DNA of 64,000 nt. It comes from Spirochaetota bacterium. Its GTDB lineage: Bacteria; Spirochaetota; UBA4802; JAFGDQ01. Shown piece by piece: positions 31,092-62,451 of the stretch. Position 1 is the stretch's first letter. Each line of letters begins with the position of its first letter. The notes under the pieces are model-generated. The model searched no databases. It saw nothing but the letters and a program-made list of their open reading frames with translations, and was not told the origin of the DNA. The stretch is from the NCBI GenBank assembly GCA_043803405.1, contig JAZDKB010000019.1:171840-235839 (forward strand), in the 5' to 3' direction. The position numbers and the translations under genes were made by a program.

Positions 31092-32069
31092 TTATTCCTT
31101 AACCTTGCTATCGAAGCTTTCATCCTCTTTATATTTTCGTTTGAGTTTCCCTGAAATAATTCCTACTAAACTTTCACCGTATAACATAAAAATAAGCCCG
31201 CTGATAATGAAAGGTATACTGAGAGCAAGCAGGGGCGCCGGATTTTCGCGGCCAAGCGCGAGTCCAAGCAAAACTGCGATAAGCGGATTCACGATCGTAT
31301 AGCTTACTATCCTGATTGAAGGTTCGTGCGCAATGAGATACGTGTAAGCGTAATATGCCGCGCTGCCCATAATACTTAAATACAATAATGAGAAAGCAGA
31401 TCTGTGACTTATATTACTTATAAGTTCAGGAAGCGGCTGATACAGGAACTGCGACATTACAAATGCAATTAAACCTGCAATTATCATTTGAAGGCCGCTG
31501 TTTACTAAATTGTTCGGATACACTTTAAGCATGTGACCTATGCTTGTCGCAAACGACCATGAAATTAAACCGCCTAATGTTAGTATGATATACGGGTCAA
31601 TCGAAGAGAACGGATTTTTTCCTGTATATAAAATTGCCGTCACCCCGAGAAAACCCAGAATTATTCCAAGGAGACGGACTCTGGACAGTTTTTCTTTAAA
31701 AAACATCCTGTTGAAAACAGCAACGCTGAAAGGAGTTGCTGAAATAATAATTGCCGAAAGATAGCTGTCGATACGCAGAAGGCCTGCGGATACAAGGCCG
31801 CTGCCTCCTATAAGAAGGAATATACCGAAGAATGAGGCGGATAAAAATTCTCTGATGGTCGGCATTCTGTTTAGCTTTCGCGTGGCCAGCGATATGAGTA
31901 TGAATCCCAGGCCGCCGAAAAAGAAGCGTGTGCTTACCAGATAATATACGGGGAATGATTCAACTGCCCAGCGCATTGCCAGGTAAGTTGATCCCCATAC
32001 AATATAAATTGTAAGGTAAGCAAAGATAACAGGAAGTTTGGGAACAATTTTAAAAATCATTATGACCAA
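31092..32069 (-). CDS. DMT superfamily transporter (EamA family)
   Basis: 325 aa with 10 TM helices in two EamA repeats. The N-terminus IVWGSTYLAMRWAVE is typical. Confidence 0.85.
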   Translation of the reverse strand: MVIMIFKIVPKLPVIFAYLTIYIVWGSTYLAMRWAVESFPVYYLVSTRFFFGGLGFILISLATRKLNRMPTIREFLSASFFGIFLLIGGSGLVSAGLLRIDSYLSAIIISATPFSVAVFNRMFFKEKLSRVRLLGIILGFLGVTAILYTGKNPFSSIDPYIILTLGGLISWSFATSIGHMLKVYPNNLVNSGLQMIIAGLIAFVMSQFLYQPLPELISNISHRSAFSLLYLSIMGSAAYYAYTYLIAHEPSIRIVSYTIVNPLIAVLLGLALGRENPAPLLALSIPFIISGLIFMLYGESLVGIISGKLKRKYKEDESFDSKVKE

Positions 32070-33064: not shown

Positions 33065-33738
33065 TTTGTTTGCCTGTGTCCGATTATATGTTTAATCCGA
33101 GCAAACGTCTGTTATAGATGCTGTCCGGGATGATAACAGTGCCGGAATCTCATTAAATAGCAACTAATTTTCAATTTATATAATTAAAAAATTTTTAAAT
33201 TGGAAACCGCTTTTTATAATTTTGTTAATTTTTAAGATCAAGGATTATTCATATAATATGATACGGAATTTTTATATGAGATTTGTTATTCTGAGATATA
33301 ATAAAGGTTGAACCTGCATATTATTTAAAATTCAGCTTTAAAATAATCGGTTCTTAAAAAATTTGATAGAATTAATAAAAGTATACTATTATGATTTATT
33401 CTTGATAATTTTACGCTATCAATTTAACATTGCAATTGTAAATTTTTTTAAGTTGATTGTTTTTACCGGCTGATTATGGTGCTGCGCATTTTTAATATGT
33501 ATTCTTATGTGCAAGTAAATAAGTTTATTGCAGAACTGTTTTAAAAAAAATATCCCTCAAAATTATTTGATCCTGTTTTTCAACTGAATCAGAGTTGTTT
33601 TAGAGAAGGAATTTATTAATAAAAATTATGCATGCAAAGAATTTGTCGGAATTTAAAATAGTTTATATCCGGTTGAAACATCAGCGCCAATAAATCCCTA
33701 AAACAGGATTAATGTTTTGTTTTGCAAAGGAGAAAAAT

Positions 33739-34014
33739 ATGGAAGATAAAATAAAAGAAAACAGAAGAAAGATGGCGAAAGTGATCTCCAAGGCATGGAG
33801 CAGTGAATCGTTTAAAGAGAAGCTTATTTCAAATCCGAGAATGGTTCTGGCGGAAAACGGAATTACTGTGCCGGCAGATGTTGAATTAAAGGTTGTTGAG
33901 CAAACTGAAAAACTTATGTATATTGTTATACCATTTAGACCAGAGGATGCAGAGGGCGGGTCATGGATGACTGAAGACGATGCCTATGATATACCTTGTA
34001 TTCGTTGCGTATAA
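33739..34014 (+). CDS. RiPP precursor peptide, NHLP (nitrile hydratase leader peptide) family; leader ends ...PEDAEGG, predicted core SWMTEDDAYDIPCIRCV
   Basis: The leader KAWSSESFKEKLISNPRMVLAENGITVPADVELKVVEQTEKLMYIVIP closely matches the NHLP family consensus (KAWsD.aFk..Ll.nPkavLae.Gv.vPegvelkvve.t.dtlylVlP). The ATG at 33739 has an aggag SD. A GG motif precedes the Cys-containing C-terminus. Biosynthetic genes lie immediately downstream. Confidence 0.8.
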   Translation: MEDKIKENRRKMAKVISKAWSSESFKEKLISNPRMVLAENGITVPADVELKVVEQTEKLMYIVIPFRPEDAEGGSWMTEDDAYDIPCIRCV

Positions 34015-34191
34015 AGTTACTTTAGAGAAACAGGTCTGGTTATAAGTAGAGTTGTGTCTGTGATGTTTTTGACTGCTTTTTTAGTGAGGTGACCAGCTTT
34101 TAAAGGAATGAAACTCCATCATTTGTTATATTTAAGCTTTGGGTGTCCAGCACATCAACTATTCCTATATGCTTGCGGGGTATAAATTGTC

Positions 34192-35181
34192 GTGATTGCT
34201 TCCCTTGTGCCGCGCGAATTGAAGATTGAAATTACAAATAACTGCAATCTGCATTGTACCTTTTGTTCTCTGGGCGGGAAGATATCTTCGGATATTTGCT
34301 TTATGCCGGAGGAGGAAGTTCTGCGCTGGATAGACTGGGCAGTCGATAATAATATGCGCTATGTGCGTTTTACCGGCGGGGAGGCCATGATGCATCCGCA
34401 GATAGAGATGTTTTGCTATTATGCGTACCGGCTGGGACGCCTTATCATTCTGAATACTAACGGAATGGGGGATGACAAACTTTACAGGAAAATTCTTCGT
34501 GTTGTATACGATATGCGTATTAGCATGCCGACTCTTGATGCAGTGCGTATGGATAAACTTACCTGCGGAAAGGACGTGCTTGTAAAAAAGAAAAATGTGA
34601 TCGGACTGGCGCTGGAAACGGGTGTGCCACGCATAAGTCTTTTAACGCCTTTGCTGCCGGAGCTGCACGGAAGCCTGGAACAATTCGTTCTTTTTGTTAA
34701 AACTTCACCCAGGCTATTCTGGCTGCCGCTGCGTTACGAGTCTAGCCCGACAGCCCCCCGTCCATGGACGCAGTCAGATGCACAGGCCTTTGCCGAGGAG
34801 ATGGCTGATCTAATGCGCCGTTATCCGGAAAAGGCGAAGGGGATTTACCTGGCTATGCCGTTTTGCGGGATAAAGCCGGCAAGCCTTGGCGCATTCATAT
34901 TTCACGGGCGAACGGAGGATTGCGGCCCCTTCGCGGCCCTGAACGTTAATGTCAGCGGCCGTATGCAGGCATGTTTTAATGTGGGTGAAACGGACGGCAT
35001 CCCGGCGCTTTCCGAGATTTACAATTGCCCTGAAATATGCGCCTGTGCCTCTATTGATACATTGCCTGACGAATGCCGGTGCTGTAAGTATGTTGCCCGA
35101 TGCGCCGGAGGCTGCCGCAAGCCATATAGCATGGTCCGGCACGGCGGTCGGCAGATCGATTATCTGGCAGGATTTGTGTAA
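34192..35181 (+). CDS. radical SAM enzyme with C-terminal SPASM/twitch domain (RiPP maturase)
   Basis: CxxxCxxC at residues 17-24 (CNLHCTFC). The C-terminal Cys-rich region CPEICACASIDTLPDECRCCKYVARCAGGCRK fits the auxiliary Fe-S SPASM pattern. GTG start. Confidence 0.8.
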   Translation: MIASLVPRELKIEITNNCNLHCTFCSLGGKISSDICFMPEEEVLRWIDWAVDNNMRYVRFTGGEAMMHPQIEMFCYYAYRLGRLIILNTNGMGDDKLYRKILRVVYDMRISMPTLDAVRMDKLTCGKDVLVKKKNVIGLALETGVPRISLLTPLLPELHGSLEQFVLFVKTSPRLFWLPLRYESSPTAPRPWTQSDAQAFAEEMADLMRRYPEKAKGIYLAMPFCGIKPASLGAFIFHGRTEDCGPFAALNVNVSGRMQACFNVGETDGIPALSEIYNCPEICACASIDTLPDECRCCKYVARCAGGCRKPYSMVRHGGRQIDYLAGFV

Positions 35182-35218
35182 CAGGCCGGCTGCTCGTGCA
35201 TCATTTCATGGTATTGTT

Positions 35219-37483
35219 ATGAATTATTATAAAATTAAAACCGGTAAAGCCGTAGTAGCAGACGGCGACAGCTTGTTTCTGCTTGATGAAACAAGCCAAA
35301 AGAAAATTACATCAGAATTAATGTCCGGGTTGATGCGTCTCATCAGCCGTGGGCCTGCCGATGAAGAGGAACTCGTCTCTGCATTGGAAGATCGTTTTTC
35401 TCCGGTACGGATATACTATGCGCTTGTTCAGCTTGAAAAGCTGGGTTTAATAGTTAAAGATAATCGTCCTGAATCGCAAACTAATTTATTCAGAGAAAAA
35501 CTGTTTAGGCAGAATGGGAGCGATTGCCGGCAGCTTCGGAAACCTGCATTGCCTGTAAGGATATTTTCGATCGCAGGTGCGGAATCTTCTGCCGATGTTC
35601 TTTCTGAAGCGTTGAAACGTTCGGATCTGATGCAAGTTGAACGTCCGGATGACTGGCATACTGAAAAAATATCTTCCAACTGCCTTTACATTGCAGTAAC
35701 ACCCGATTATCTTGAACCGGAACTGGAGGCTTTTGGGCATCTGGCTTATAAAAGCGGAGTTCGCTGGCTGCCTGTTAAACTGGCAGGCGTGATACCGTGG
35801 ATAGGGCCATTGTTCGATAGGCAAGAGACAGCCTGTATTGAGTGCCTGCTTGACAGGGTGAAAGGGCACAGGCGGCTGGAAGCAAAACAAATCCGAGAGG
35901 ATGGAGCAAAGCAATCACTTCGTCTTTCAGCGGGACAGACTTTTTATTCGTTTGAAGTCGCAGCAGGGCTTTTGTCTGTGGAACTGGAAAAAATTGCGAC
36001 GGACTGTAAATCGGAATTAGCAGGCGGAATGTTTACAATCGATTTCCGGTCTTTTAAATTTGACAGGCATGCTTTTATAAAACGTCCGCAGTGTCCCGCA
36101 TGCGGAAATATTATTAAAGGAAATATAAAAACCGGAGTTTTTCCTGCTGAGGCGATGCATTTGCAATCGCGGGCAAAATCGGATCACCGTGACGGCGGTG
36201 AACGTATATGTTCGGCTGTTGAAACGCTTAAGAAATATAATCATTTGATCAGTCCGGTTACAGGCATTGTGGGAGAATTAAAACCAGTAGAAGGAATTCC
36301 GCCGTGTTTCGGCAGTGTGATAAGAAGCAGGTGGATTATCCGCAGCGGAGAAAGTGCGGAAAGAAAAAATAATGCGCGTTTATCGGCTACCGGTTTCAGC
36401 ACAGGCAAAGGGAAGACTGAGCAGCAGGCGCTGGCCAGCGCACTTGGTGAGGCTGTAGAGCGTTACTGCTCGCAGCACGAGGGCTATGAAACACGCATCC
36501 GAGCATCTTTCGCGGAGCTTGGCGACCCGGCGATTCATCCTTATAGCCTGATGGGCTTCAGCGAAAGGCAGTATTCTGAGCGTGAATCATGGCGCCGGAA
36601 AGGGGACACTTCGTATGTGCCTGAGCCTTACGAAGCTTCATTGCTGATTGACTGGTCGCCTGCATGGTCGCTGACTCAGAAGCGCTGGAAGCTCATCCCG
36701 AGCGCTTTTGCTTATTATTCCTACCCGCGTGATGGCGGCGGCGATATTTGCCGCGGGTGCAGCAACGGCGTGGCTGCCGGCAATTGCATAGAAGAGGCAA
36801 TAATGCAGGGCTTCTTTGAGCTGGTAGAACGCGATGCCACTGCAATGTGGTGGTATCATAAACTACGGAAACCATCTGTGGATTGGCTAAGTTTTGGCTC
36901 TTCTTTCACAGCTTCCGTTGATGCACAAATCAGGAAAATGGGGATGAAACTTGAAGTACTCGATCTGACAAACGATCTCGGCATACCCGTGTTCTCAGCC
37001 AATCTTTTTATGTGTGATGAAGGCAACAGTTTTATCTCAATGGGATTAGGCTGCCACTGTGATCCGTATATTGCGCTTGAGCGTGCTATAGCGGAGCTTG
37101 GACAGCTCTGGACACAAATGAATACGGACGATTCCGGCCGCAGATTTACAGAAAGCCTGCGCAGCATAGGATCATTTTTAAGGGCTGATCCCGGTCGGAC
37201 TCCAATGACATATTTCGATTTTCCAGAAAAACAGCGCAGTGATTTTCTCGACGACATTAATGATACCGTGCGGAACTTGAGCGAAAGGGGACTGGAAATG
37301 CTGGTGATGGATTTGACCCGCCCCGACGTCGGTTTCCCGGTAGCGCGTGTTATCGTCCCGGGCCTTATCCATTTTTGGCCGCGTTTCGGATGCAGCCGTC
37401 TATTTGAAGTTCCCAAAGCTGCAGGCTGGATTGACAAGGAAGCAGGTGAAGATGACCTTAATCCGGTGCCGTTCTGCTGGTGA
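35219..37483 (+). CDS. fused E1-like (ThiF-like, with RRE) / YcaO cyclodehydratase (PatD/TruD-type azoline synthase)
   Basis: N-terminal winged-helix/E1-like domain with two CxxC pairs (TACIEC, RPQCPAC), as in the Zn-tetrathiolate of PatD-like proteins. YcaO signature SATGFSTGKGKTEQQALASALGEAVERY. Start set at the ATG at 35219. The longer ORF from 34949 would overlap the rSAM gene by 230 bp. Confidence 0.85.
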   Translation: MNYYKIKTGKAVVADGDSLFLLDETSQKKITSELMSGLMRLISRGPADEEELVSALEDRFSPVRIYYALVQLEKLGLIVKDNRPESQTNLFREKLFRQNGSDCRQLRKPALPVRIFSIAGAESSADVLSEALKRSDLMQVERPDDWHTEKISSNCLYIAVTPDYLEPELEAFGHLAYKSGVRWLPVKLAGVIPWIGPLFDRQETACIECLLDRVKGHRRLEAKQIREDGAKQSLRLSAGQTFYSFEVAAGLLSVELEKIATDCKSELAGGMFTIDFRSFKFDRHAFIKRPQCPACGNIIKGNIKTGVFPAEAMHLQSRAKSDHRDGGERICSAVETLKKYNHLISPVTGIVGELKPVEGIPPCFGSVIRSRWIIRSGESAERKNNARLSATGFSTGKGKTEQQALASALGEAVERYCSQHEGYETRIRASFAELGDPAIHPYSLMGFSERQYSERESWRRKGDTSYVPEPYEASLLIDWSPAWSLTQKRWKLIPSAFAYYSYPRDGGGDICRGCSNGVAAGNCIEEAIMQGFFELVERDATAMWWYHKLRKPSVDWLSFGSSFTASVDAQIRKMGMKLEVLDLTNDLGIPVFSANLFMCDEGNSFISMGLGCHCDPYIALERAIAELGQLWTQMNTDDSGRRFTESLRSIGSFLRADPGRTPMTYFDFPEKQRSDFLDDINDTVRNLSERGLEMLVMDLTRPDVGFPVARVIVPGLIHFWPRFGCSRLFEVPKAAGWIDKEAGEDDLNPVPFCW

Positions 37484-37486
37484 GAA

Positions 37487-38860
37487 ATGAGCGAATCAAA
37501 GGATATAATTGAAACAAATATGCAAGCATCTAATATTTTTTTCTCCGTAAGGTTGCGCGATGATATTATTGCAGACCGTCCGGGGAACGGGCGAATCATA
37601 TTTATTAAAAACGGGATTAAATGTACGGATATTCCGGCGGACCATCCGCTTATCGAATCTTTGATTGCCAAATGGGTCACAGAGGCGACAATTGACCAGG
37701 AAGCCTCATCGGCATCCAATCCTTCAGTCATATATTATATTTTCGAAAAGCTGTTCTCCCTCGGCCTCCTTAAGGCACGATGCACACTTAACGAAAAATC
37801 CCTGTTCTCTGTTGTACCTGCCCCGGAGTGGCAGGCATGGCAGGGAAAGCTGCCTGCATCAGCGCATAGGCTTTCGCCATGCTTATGCCTACGGCAGAAT
37901 GAGCATGATTTTATTCTGGAGATGCCGCTTTCACAAAAGAAATGCATTATACATGATGGAAGGTGCATTATCTGGCTAATGGAGATTGTACAAGGAAGCA
38001 TTTCCATGCCTGTAAATGATGCAGCCCGTTCAGCATTTTATCTGGCATTATGGATGATGAATGCCCTTATATGTGATGAGGATTCCGATCCTTCCTGGGA
38101 GTTCCACGACTTGCTGTTCTTTCATCATTCAAGCATCGGCTTTCATGATGATGCTACCGGAGCGACCTGCAGGTTTAAGGATAAATCTTTGCCTGAGCCG
38201 CTTTTAAAGGCGATCACGGGGTTTTGTGTTTCGCTTCCTGAACCCGATGAGCGGCTTATGAAAAAGCTGAATACGCCTTTTGCCGAAGTGCTTGCAAAGC
38301 GCCGCAGCAGCCGTAATGTATGCGGATCACCGGCCCTCGAAGAAATAGGCGCTTTGCTTTTTGCATCAGCCCGCATTCAGAGCGTCAGGGACGATTCTAC
38401 GCATAGTTATTTTGTTTCATTGCGGCCTTCTCCCAGCGGTGGTGCATTGCATTCCATTGAAATATATTTATTTGTACGTCAATGCACAAATCTTGAAAGC
38501 GGAGTCTGGCGCTATGATCCAGGCCGGCATCAGGTGGAATCTGTTGCAGCGGACAATGAATTATTTGAAGCCTACATGAACAGCAATCCGTATGCTGCGG
38601 GACCGAACACAGCGCCTCCGTATCTTCGATTAGTGATGACATCTCGTTTTCAGCGGAACTCGTGGAAATACGAAAAGATCGCCTACCGTCTTGTTCTGCA
38701 GGATCTGGGCTGCCTGTATCAGACTATAAGTCTGGCAGCTGCAGCTCTGGGACTGGCAACCTGCATTCTCGGCGCAGTTGAAGCAAAGCGCCTTGGAGAG
38801 ATAATGAAGCTGGAACCTCTTATCGAACCGGTCATCGGGGAGATGATGTTATCGTCTTAG
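37487..38860 (+). CDS. SagB/ThcOx-type FMN-dependent dehydrogenase (azoline oxidase)
   Basis: C-terminal nitroreductase-like fold with LAKRRSSRN...LRPSPSGGALHSIEIY, typical of SagB-family TOMM dehydrogenases. Starts 4 bp after the cyclodehydratase stop. Confidence 0.8.
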   Translation: MSESKDIIETNMQASNIFFSVRLRDDIIADRPGNGRIIFIKNGIKCTDIPADHPLIESLIAKWVTEATIDQEASSASNPSVIYYIFEKLFSLGLLKARCTLNEKSLFSVVPAPEWQAWQGKLPASAHRLSPCLCLRQNEHDFILEMPLSQKKCIIHDGRCIIWLMEIVQGSISMPVNDAARSAFYLALWMMNALICDEDSDPSWEFHDLLFFHHSSIGFHDDATGATCRFKDKSLPEPLLKAITGFCVSLPEPDERLMKKLNTPFAEVLAKRRSSRNVCGSPALEEIGALLFASARIQSVRDDSTHSYFVSLRPSPSGGALHSIEIYLFVRQCTNLESGVWRYDPGRHQVESVAADNELFEAYMNSNPYAAGPNTAPPYLRLVMTSRFQRNSWKYEKIAYRLVLQDLGCLYQTISLAAAALGLATCILGAVEAKRLGEIMKLEPLIEPVIGEMMLSS

Positions 38861-39085
38861 CAAAAGTCTATTTCTCCAGCTCATTCAATGAATATGTTTT
38901 AATCTACTGAAGTTGGAGTTTAATATTTATCTTAAGATTAAAAGTTATTCTTTGAATAAGGGTACATTCTAAATTATCCGGTTTCTTCTTAAATTATTTT
39001 ATTTGTATTTTTTAATTTTTTATATTACCATAGATATTGATTCATGGCACTCCAGTTCTCTTTAGATTATTTCCTGGAGTTAATA

Positions 39086-61455: not shown

Positions 61456-62451
61456 ATGTTAATAGATAGTTTTTCCAGAAAGCTGGATTATTTGCGGGTC
61501 TCAATAACCGATAAATGCAATCTGCGATGCAGCTACTGCATGCCGCCCGAAGGGCTTGAGCTTCTGGAGCATGATGAAGTTCTTAGAAATGAAGAATTCA
61601 TTTATCTTATAAGGATATTTGCAGACCTCGGCATAAAAAAAGTCCGCTTTACAGGCGGGGAGCCCCTGGTTCGCAAAGGATTTCTTGATATAGTTGAGGG
61701 AACCCGTGAAGCTTCGCCTGATCTTGAACTTTGCTTAACTACAAACGGAGTGCTGCTTGATAAAGTAATACCTGATTTGAAAAGATTAAGCGTTAAAAAA
61801 CTGAACATAAGCCTTGATACTTTATCACAGGATGAATTTAAAAAAATTACCGGAAGAGATTATTTTAACAAAGTAATATCAAACATTGAAAATGCAATAA
61901 GTATGGATTATTTTGAAGTTAAAATTAATTGCGTACTGCGTGAAGATACATTAAATGAACTGGATGATTTTCTTGAATATTTTAAAGATAAAAAGGCTAT
62001 TCTAAGATTTATTGAAAAAATGCCGTTTTCTCTGGATAAAAACAGCAGGCAGGTTTCATTTAATGATTTAATTGCCGAATTGGGAAAAAGAGGTAAGCTT
62101 GAGAGGAACAACAGCCTGGATACGAAAGTTGCGGTTATGTATAATCTTATTTATAAAAGTATTTATACTATTAAAATAGGTGTTATACCCCCGATGTCGC
62201 ATAATTTTTGCGCGAAATGCAACCGCCTCCGGCTGACATGCGACGGCTTTCTGAGAACATGCCTGCTTGCAAATAATGAGTACGACCTGAAAAGCGTATA
62301 CAGAATGGATATGGGCGATAAAGCGTTAAAGGATTTTATTTTGCGCGCTGTAAGCGAAAAACCGAAAGCTCACAACATGGATTGCAATAGCCCGGACGAA
62401 GGATGTTTCTCGCTGGTCTCACGCAGAAGAATGTCCGAAATAGGCGGATAA
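61456..62451 (+). CDS. moaA: GTP 3',8-cyclase (molybdenum cofactor biosynthesis protein A)
   Basis: Radical SAM CNLRCSYC near the N-terminus. The C-terminal second cluster Cys (CAKCNRLRLTCDG) is typical of MoaA. 331 aa. Confidence 0.9.
   Translation: MLIDSFSRKLDYLRVSITDKCNLRCSYCMPPEGLELLEHDEVLRNEEFIYLIRIFADLGIKKVRFTGGEPLVRKGFLDIVEGTREASPDLELCLTTNGVLLDKVIPDLKRLSVKKLNISLDTLSQDEFKKITGRDYFNKVISNIENAISMDYFEVKINCVLREDTLNELDDFLEYFKDKKAILRFIEKMPFSLDKNSRQVSFNDLIAELGKRGKLERNNSLDTKVAVMYNLIYKSIYTIKIGVIPPMSHNFCAKCNRLRLTCDGFLRTCLLANNEYDLKSVYRMDMGDKALKDFILRAVSEKPKAHNMDCNSPDEGCFSLVSRRRMSEIGG

Follow-up and report, generated by a model that had tools for sequence, protein, structure and literature searches.

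A compact radical SAM enzyme in an NHLP-type precursor, cyclodehydratase, and dehydrogenase cassette of a Spirochaetota bacterium: a candidate SPASM-like peptide maturase without a recognition element

The gene considered here lies in a 64,000-nucleotide stretch of DNA from a Spirochaetota bacterium (assembly GCA_043803405.1, contig JAZDKB010000019.1, positions 171,840 to 235,839 of the forward strand), which we refer to as the window and number from its first letter. It encodes a radical S-adenosylmethionine (SAM) enzyme and is the second of four genes typical of a peptide that is made on the ribosome and modified after translation (RiPP): a precursor with a leader peptide of the nitrile hydratase type (NHLP), the radical SAM enzyme, a fused E1-like/YcaO cyclodehydratase, and a SagB-type dehydrogenase, all co-directional and separated by gaps of 177, 37, and 3 nt (Table 1). 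The profile matches confirm the position between precursor and cyclodehydratase proposed in an initial annotation made from the sequence alone, and membership in a RiPP operon holds as well, the three neighbors all scoring above their model cutoffs. On balance, we consider the protein a peptide-tailoring radical SAM enzyme dedicated to this conserved four-gene cassette. It is a compact, uncharacterized branch of the radical SAM/SPASM peptide maturases without a RiPP recognition element (RRE), and a variation on known enzymes rather than a new kind.

Table 1. Features of the cassette and its surroundings, in window coordinates.
Feature	Coordinates	Strand	Basis
EamA-family exporter, two genes upstream, possible exporter/immunity gene	31092..32069	-	Below-cutoff match to YedA, 144 bits
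Best sigma-70-like promoter match, TTGATA-18-TATTAT, candidate operon promoter	33363..33392	+	10/12 consensus match only
NHLP-type precursor, 91 aa	33739..34014	+	TIGR03793, 71.9 bits (cutoff 50.9); Pfam NHase_alpha
Precursor-radical SAM spacer, 177 bp, Shine-Dalgarno-like GGGG ~12 nt before the GTG	34015..34191	+	Fold, terminator, and Rfam tests
Radical SAM/SPASM-like maturase without RRE, 329 aa, GTG start	34192..35181	+	Open reading frame, Pfam, alignment, AlphaFold2 model, Foldseek
Codons of the radical SAM cluster motif, C18-x3-C22-x2-C25	34243..34266	+	No variation among 37 family members
SPASM-like auxiliary-cluster region, residues 225-311	34864..35124	+	Cys pattern, alignment to anaerobic sulfatase-maturating enzyme, partial TIGR04085 match
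Fused E1-like/YcaO cyclodehydratase, 754 aa	35219..37483	+	TIGR03604, 300 bits (cutoff 219); TIGR03882, 119 bits (36.9)
SagB-type flavin mononucleotide dehydrogenase, 457 aa, ThcOx-like N-terminal extension	37487..38860	+	TIGR03605, 162.7 bits (cutoff 78.4)

The enzyme belongs to the radical SAM superfamily, with a Pfam Radical_SAM (PF04055) match of 53.4 bits (cutoff 29.5) over residues 12-165. The CxxxCxxC motif had been placed at residues 17-24; the motif stands, but it lies one residue further on, at 18-25, and reads C18-N-L-H-C22-T-F-C25. A stop codon two codons 5' of the GTG closes the upstream frame, and the start is kept as [G/A]TG-ATT in five related loci (GTG in three, ATG in two), with a Shine-Dalgarno-like purine stretch ~11-13 nt upstream in all five. 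The GTG start is thus retained as originally described, and the short N-terminus is genuine rather than the product of a mis-called start.

On this protein, all curated NCBIfam models score far short of their cutoffs. The best is MoaA (TIGR02666), at 59.2 bits against 284; the tungsten-cofactor maturase model gives 42 bits against 380, PqqE (TIGR02109) 30 against 381, and the sactipeptide and ranthipeptide models AlbA, StsB, PapB, and SCIFF fail likewise (StsB 28.6 bits against 625, AlbA 22.2 against 850), the protein also having no RRE. The model for anaerobic sulfatase-maturating enzymes (anSME; TIGR03942, cutoff 349) is absent from the top full-length matches and reaches only 12.6 bits on the C-terminal domain. 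No PoyD/OspD-type epimerase model is found among the curated-model matches listed, reference sequences of that type not having been compared. A bona fide MoaA of 331 aa (TIGR02666, 324.5 bits) is encoded elsewhere in the window, at 61456-62451 on the forward strand; it shares only ~25% identity with the enzyme under study, in the SAM core. The separation from anSME implied by the initial annotation holds at the family level, and so does one from MoaA: every curated cutoff is missed by a wide margin, and the window has a MoaA of its own.

A search of 5.8 billion proteins recovered ~70 homologues at 47-74% identity, the window's own protein not being among them; the named sources are Syntrophus, Syntrophorhabdaceae, Syntrophobacterales, Desulfovibrio inopinatus, and Humidesulfovibrio, in addition to metagenomes. 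Of 1.84 billion cluster representatives searched as a library, about eight alone exceed 275 bits; the next, at ~200 bits, are HD-domain fusions or members of clusters with several radical SAM genes, without NHLP. We compared 25 non-identical family loci, seeking NHLP precursors within 4 kb of the radical SAM gene, and found one in 23; the two loci without a precursor are at contig ends, where less than 1.1 kb remains on one side and only 88 bp on the other. A YcaO gene is present in 19 of the 25, and two loci (L031 and L032) combine the radical SAM gene with an NHLP precursor and no YcaO despite at least 5.7 kb of flank on both sides. Gene order varies, the radical SAM gene preceding the precursors in D. 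inopinatus and following SagB in L012. Because every adequately flanked locus has an NHLP precursor and not all have a YcaO, the invariant partner of the enzyme is the precursor rather than the cyclodehydratase, and because numerous independent genomes and metagenomes have the same cassette, the arrangement is not due to chance. The loci lacking YcaO argue that the enzyme may be able to act without a YcaO partner, which favors direct recognition of the leader over an obligatory use of the RRE of the YcaO protein.

This linkage also bears on whether the protein is instead a cofactor enzyme of the MoaA or NirJ kind that happens to sit beside RiPP genes. Its two top curated scores are indeed to MoaA and the tungsten-cofactor maturase, MoeA/MobB-like genes occur near the cassette in several Syntrophus loci, and the nearest out-groups belong to HD-domain fusions or multi-enzyme clusters without NHLP. 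Those scores are, however, far under their cutoffs, the window has its genuine MoaA at another place and lacks the Mo-cofactor neighbors of those loci, and the NHLP linkage persists across gene orders and taxa. We therefore regard a cofactor role as extremely improbable: the linkage and the separate MoaA together essentially exclude a function outside peptide maturation.

The neighboring genes define a known type of cluster, that of the NHLP-associated thiazole/oxazole-modified microcins (NHLP-TOMM): the precursor, a SagD-type YcaO protein with an E1-like leader-binding domain, and SagB are adjacent and each scores above its cutoff. The best start of the precursor is the ATG at its listed position, with an AAGGAG Shine-Dalgarno sequence 7 nt upstream. 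NHLP-TOMM clusters, in which an NHLP precursor lies beside a fused cyclodehydratase-docking protein and a dehydrogenase, were described by Haft, Basu and Mitchell in 2010, and Syntrophus aciditrophicus was already among those listed (PMC2887384). Neither 'radical' nor 'rSAM' occurs in the text of that paper (PMC2887384), so the radical SAM partner family is undescribed there. We found no paper describing this enzyme in the literature on NHLP, YcaO, and radical SAM/SPASM proteins, and no curated family model covers it.

The C-terminal half of the enzyme is characterized by its cysteines. Exactly ten are invariant over 37 homologues, namely the three of the SAM cluster and C225, C244, C261, C295, C298, C304, and C308. 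Compared with the seven-cysteine SPASM motif (CX9-15GX4C ... CX2CX5CX3C ... C), C244-X11-G256-X4-C261 and C295-X2-C298-X5-C304-X3-C308 correspond to the first six signature positions, and C317, C320, C326, and C330 of anSME align residue-for-residue with C295, C298, C304, and C308. The canonical seventh, C-terminal cysteine is missing, as no cysteine follows C308 in any of the 37 members; in its place the family has the invariant upstream C225. An AlphaFold2 model built from the family alignment is of high confidence (pLDDT 91.6, pTM 0.90), and its best Foldseek matches among solved structures are BlsE, SuiB (TM 0.75, SuiA-bound form), SkfB, and PqqE, of which SuiB and PqqE are SPASM and BlsE and SkfB twitch enzymes. 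A profile search of Protein Data Bank (PDB) sequences returns PqqE (the best, E 1.7e-10), SkfB, MoaA, SuiB, and CteB, while anSME is the only solved chain that aligns over the full length (residues 19-315). Public pipelines label the homologues 'radical SAM/SPASM'.

Several results weigh against a SPASM assignment. Pfam SPASM (PF13186) gives no match on the protein even at E<=10, and TIGR04085 reaches 20 bits (E 6.7e-4), short of its cutoff of 27, although the match falls in the expected place, residues 245-311. The allocation of cysteines to clusters is likewise a point of caution, being drawn from alignment rather than coordinates. The evidence is mixed but overall favorable to a SPASM-like C-terminus. 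Of the SPASM-type cysteine domain initially proposed, the motif, the anSME alignment, and the fold are borne out, whereas the dedicated profiles are silent or sub-threshold and the seventh cysteine is absent; profile and structural searches do not place the region outside the SPASM and twitch enzymes outright. By analogy, auxiliary cluster I would probably be bound by C225, C244, C261, and C308, and auxiliary cluster II by C295, C298, and C304 with a non-cysteine ligand or an open site, for which the near-invariant H317 and D323 are candidates. One of the auxiliary clusters of PqqE has a non-cysteine ligand, and a similar arrangement is likely for one predicted auxiliary cluster here.

As initially described, the enzyme has no N-terminal RRE, and a C-terminal one is excluded likewise. 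No PqqD-type match is found in the protein with Pfam or NCBIfam, and a winged helix of ~80-100 residues is not accommodated at either end: the first barrel strand of the model spans residues 9-13, the chain ends 21 residues past C308, and full-length homologues measure 324-373 aa (250-373 aa over all ~70), leaving no room for such a domain. RREs are instead likely in neighboring proteins. The N-terminus of the E1-YcaO protein is homologous to the leader-binding region of LynD, MusD, and TruD (LynD E 1.7e-32, aligned from residue 15), so that an RRE in this protein is well supported by homology. It had been claimed to be the only one in the operon, which is probably not so. The dehydrogenase has an N-terminal extension of 260 residues (37487-38290) homologous to ThcOx and CyaGox (5lq4, E 1.3e-37, from residue 125), with a Pfam ThcOx match of 26.4 bits at residues 134-220, and ThcOx has been described as containing copies of the RRE (PMC8795117); the extension is therefore probably RRE-like. 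No discrete RRE or protease gene was found near the operon in the window, and tblastn with a protease from sister loci and with a small conserved upstream open reading frame (ORF) was negative. That small ORF of related loci was considered as an RRE and rejected; its product is a P-loop protein of the MobB kind, associated with Mo-cofactor genes.

Radical SAM/SPASM maturases that work independently of an RRE are already recognized, DarE being one (PMC10705402). DarE resembles the present enzyme in binding its precursor without an RRE, but it requires an N-terminal extension of ~60 residues for binding, which is absent here, and its precursors and chemistry are unrelated. SuiB/StrB (PDB 5v1q, 5v1s, 5v1t) is the best global fold match, with a partial triosephosphate isomerase barrel, a SPASM domain, and a peptide substrate, at 16-18% sequence identity; it differs in having an N-terminal RRE of ~100 residues (459 aa in total), in forming a Lys-Trp crosslink, and in its short-leader precursors, with no link to NHLP or YcaO. 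The anSMEs (PDB 4k36-4k39) lack an RRE, are similar in size, and align at full length including the CX2CX5CX3C block, but they act on sulfatase proteins, have eight cluster cysteines including the final downstream one that is missing in this family, and occur in another genomic context. PqqE (PDB 6c8v), with the best profile E-value among solved structures, is a SPASM enzyme acting on a ribosomal peptide, yet it depends on PqqD, a separate RRE protein, and joins Glu to Tyr by a C-C bond. EpeE/YydG (PDB 8ai1-8ai6) is likewise a small (~320-344 aa) RRE-less radical SAM peptide maturase with a C-terminal auxiliary Fe-S cluster, and a YydH-like membrane protease is found in sister loci of our enzyme; unlike it, EpeE is an epimerase, has one auxiliary cluster only, and is associated with neither an NHLP leader nor a YcaO. 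The radical SAM enzymes of proteusin pathways (PoyD/OspD epimerases and PlpX spliceases) are guided by NHLP leaders, but they are much larger and have C-terminal RRE fusions or partner proteins, and a sequence relationship to our enzyme was not detected. C-terminal RRE fusions have been reported for proteusin enzymes (PMC7470986), and azole-containing proteusins exist, such as nostatin A (PMC11583998). In one report, NHLP leaders are described as longer and structured, engaging differently with different enzyme classes (PMC12537861).

The precursors give some indication of how the substrate is presented. The tail of the window precursor, encoded at 33943-34014, reads ...EDAEGGSWMTEDDAYDIPCIRCV, and the core is probably its last ~8 residues, DIPCIRCV, as judged from alignment with 31 related precursors. 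In this alignment, the NHLP fold extends to ...V-[IL]-P-x-[KR]-P and is followed by a variable linker of ~12-16 residues. Most clades then have a leader end resembling [DE]-R-[LVM]-A-A and a hypervariable tail of ~6-10 residues, while the tail of the window clade conforms to [DE]-[IL]-x-C-x-R-C-[VS]. TEDDAY of the window precursor aligns at the position of 'ERLAA' in other clades, and the GG of EDAEGG aligns upstream of that leader end. This GG had been suggested as the cleavage site; the motif is there, but by alignment it may not be the place of cleavage. Radical SAM enzymes ~69% identical and YcaO proteins ~60% identical to those of the window serve both CxRC[VS] cores and unrelated cores of the 'ERLAA + hypervariable' kind, such as TLIKFSCS, SMVICY, WPGEYTGPGCV, and HASYYSMACH. 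Both enzymes accordingly appear, from these comparisons, to be leader-guided and core-tolerant. The only recurrent feature of the cores concerns position: of 34 complete precursor tails, 20 have their penultimate residue (-2) occupied by cysteine, and a cysteine occurs within the last five residues in 27 of 35.

D. inopinatus (L002, AUBP01000002.1) has a divergent cassette, in which the radical SAM gene accompanies three NHLP precursors with eight-residue cores lacking cysteine (HWPYIYVI, MVDAFGIL, AIVFSATF), an unfused YcaO, and no SagB. The nearest match of this YcaO is the S12/RimO-accessory type of E. coli, at 162 bits, and an EamA gene and a protein with a twin-arginine translocation signal follow. 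With cores free of cysteine, YcaO chemistry at this locus cannot be azole formation on cysteine. The YcaO-less L031 has a Gly-rich core ending in ...FGGVY (L031:7193-7408) and also encodes a SAM methyltransferase.

We favor, with moderate confidence, a leader-guided oxidative modification near the penultimate cysteine, carried out by an RRE-less radical SAM/SPASM enzyme coupled to NHLP precursors. The structured leader would deliver the C-terminal core of ~6-10 residues, here DIPCIRCV, either by touching the radical SAM barrel directly or while RRE domains of the YcaO protein or the dehydrogenase keep hold of the peptide. The cluster bound by C18, C22, and C25 would cleave SAM, and the resulting 5'-deoxyadenosyl radical would take a C-H hydrogen near the conserved penultimate cysteine, with the substrate radical resolved oxidatively via the two predicted auxiliary clusters. 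The outcome would be an intramolecular crosslink, thioether or C-C/C-X, on top of the thiazol(in)e formed by YcaO and SagB. SPASM enzymes with two auxiliary clusters perform mostly two-electron oxidative chemistry, including thioether and C-C crosslinks, dehydrogenation, and decarboxylation. We rank a crosslink first for this reason, although our commitment to it as the specific reaction is weak. Among the considerations against the proposal, no characterized homologue fixes the chemistry; the cysteine-free cores of D. inopinatus imply that a cysteine thioether cannot be a family-wide reaction; and no residue is common to all cores, which fits a backbone-directed reaction such as epimerization at least as well.

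Epimerization is accordingly the alternative to which we give most thought. Here the enzyme would act like EpeE/YydG or the proteusin epimerases, abstracting a C-alpha hydrogen and allowing its return on the opposite face from a protein thiol or another donor, so that the core would acquire D-residues. The combination of an NHLP precursor and a radical SAM enzyme is a proteusin hallmark (PMC10849128), and hypervariable cores without a universal residue are as expected if the backbone is the target. In its small size and lack of an RRE the enzyme resembles EpeE, which is among its fold and profile matches, its near-invariant C75 and invariant C225 could donate a hydrogen, and sister loci have an HExxH membrane protease, weakly YydH/LiaK-like, directly upstream of the radical SAM gene. 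However, EpeE resembles the enzyme weakly and within the SAM core alone (residues 14-112, E 0.004; TM 0.49 at Foldseek rank 47), a complete two-cluster SPASM motif of the CX2CX5CX3C kind is seen more typically in oxidative enzymes, and the protease is far closer to the daptide protease than to YydH (179 against 31 bits). PoyD-type epimerases, moreover, are not known to contain SPASM, and they carry a C-terminal RRE. We consider an epimerase unlikely, if by no means negligible.

The position of the conserved cysteine suggests a further possibility, an MftC-like oxidative decarboxylation of the last residue beside the penultimate cysteine or thiazole, possibly followed by ring closure. The preference for cysteine at -2 points to a modification set by distance from the C-terminus, which in such short cores is the sole fixed landmark; the YcaO-less L031 core ends in ...GGVY, as mycofactocin MftA ends in GVY, and for the D. 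inopinatus homologue the mycofactocin radical SAM model, at 55.5 bits, is among the better sub-threshold matches. MftC, however, requires a C-terminal tyrosine for its chemistry, and the last core residue of this family varies greatly (V, S, I, L, F, H, N, Y, K, W, G, T, P). No mycofactocin model score comes close to the cutoff of 265, and MftC uses the RRE protein MftB, for which there is no gene at this locus. This reaction appears improbable to us.

The anaerobic lifestyle of the hosts raises the question of whether the enzyme could be an oxygen-independent azoline dehydrogenase or another redox helper of the YcaO pathway, just as radical SAM dehydrogenases of the anSME/BtrN type replace oxygen-dependent enzymes. 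All named hosts (Syntrophus, Syntrophorhabdaceae, Desulfovibrio) are strict anaerobes, anSME alone among solved structures aligns at full length, and L002 and L033 have the radical SAM enzyme and a YcaO with SagB not detected. Yet most cassettes, that of the window included, already encode a SagB-type dehydrogenase, two loci have no YcaO at all, and the D. inopinatus cores are mostly devoid of cysteine, serine, and threonine, making this a distinctly improbable function.

The cassettes may represent a new RiPP subclass: peptides of ~6-10 residues cut from NHLP leaders, with a C-terminal thiazole from the penultimate cysteine and a novel radical modification installed by a SPASM enzyme that would read the folded leader directly, with neither RRE nor N-terminal extension, and that would have an open or non-cysteine auxiliary site where the last cysteine is canonically found. 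We put this forward as a tentative and somewhat doubtful proposal. Radical SAM/SPASM enzymes are a main source of new peptide chemistry, and how structured, protein-like NHLP leaders recruit RRE-less enzymes is an active question. At 329 aa, conserved in anaerobic syntrophs and sulfate reducers, paired with NHLP precursors, and tolerant of different cores, this enzyme would be a convenient system for RRE-independent, leader-guided radical chemistry and could become a tool for modifying short azole-bearing peptides. The cassettes are also likely to yield new small azole peptides, and the analysis draws attention to such a group in strict anaerobes that neither the curated models nor the papers we found cover. 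As uncharacterized radical SAM enzymes are common in RiPP clusters, it is a reasonable genome-mining lead but not a surprising one.

Regulation of the cassette was examined in the spacer between precursor and radical SAM gene and in the region upstream. The spacer, given as ~180 bp in the initial annotation, measures 177 bp, but the attenuator suggested within it finds no support: its minimum free energy is -39 kcal/mol, against -42.3 on average for shuffled versions (z +0.89), 167 of 200 of which are at least as stable, it contains no terminator-like site and no Rfam family, and in relatives its length ranges from 34 to 264 nt, with neither length nor sequence conserved. Promoter-like sites of note occur only upstream of the precursor, in an AT-rich stretch (33200-33799) with a GC content of 0.26. 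In and around 33200-38900, GC content is 0.44-0.54 in the four-gene cassette and mostly 0.30-0.45 in the flanks, and the flanks hold housekeeping genes (a Liv/Urt-type ABC importer, adenylate cyclase); the contrast and the flanks suggest that the cassette is a horizontally acquired island.

No PCAT-type transporter or protease is encoded in the window. The upstream ABC transporter genes were considered as a peptide exporter and rejected, as they are Liv/Urt-type importer components. The EamA-family gene may be an export or immunity gene of the cassette, although the association is weak; an EamA gene also lies directly 3' of the YcaO gene in the D. inopinatus cassette (L002:12368-13216).

The related loci differ in further genes. 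In a sister clade, a gene for a ~570-aa protein lies directly 5' of the radical SAM gene, often overlapping it (L011:862-2571, L031:4192-5904; also L010, L014-L019, L040, and L044). At its N-terminus the protein has a kinase-like domain (HATPase_c_2) and at its C-terminus an intramembrane HExxH protease, and it also contains a faint PqqD/ScmD-like stretch; the protease is like the daptide protease (179 bits) and weakly like the epipeptide protease YydH/LiaK (31 bits); the gene is absent from the window. Relatives of ~910 aa were considered as fusions of this protease with the radical SAM enzyme, a possibility rejected because they show no BLASTP similarity to it and have an HD domain instead. 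The nearest out-group (~200 bits; L091, L092, and L038; P0082-P0098) comprises HD-domain fusions of ~900 aa or conserved clusters of three to four radical SAM genes, one of them of the B12 type, which have small upstream ORFs but lack NHLP. They represent an unrelated, apparently undescribed system with several radical SAM enzymes. Distant relatives (L038-L063) have only generic sub-threshold matches to the curated models NirJ, AhbD, PqqE, and MoaA. In L010 (2250-2632), fragments homologous to the radical SAM enzyme occur in several frames beside an intact NHLP-SagB-YcaO set on the opposite strand, reflecting either a decayed gene or an assembly frameshift in that metagenome-assembled genome. 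Finally, L020 (2924-4357) and L012 (9125-10585, reverse strand) encode a second, classical radical SAM/SPASM maturase of 477-486 aa, with an N-terminal extension and sub-threshold PapB/QhpD/SCIFF-like matches; clusters of this kind may install two different radical modifications.

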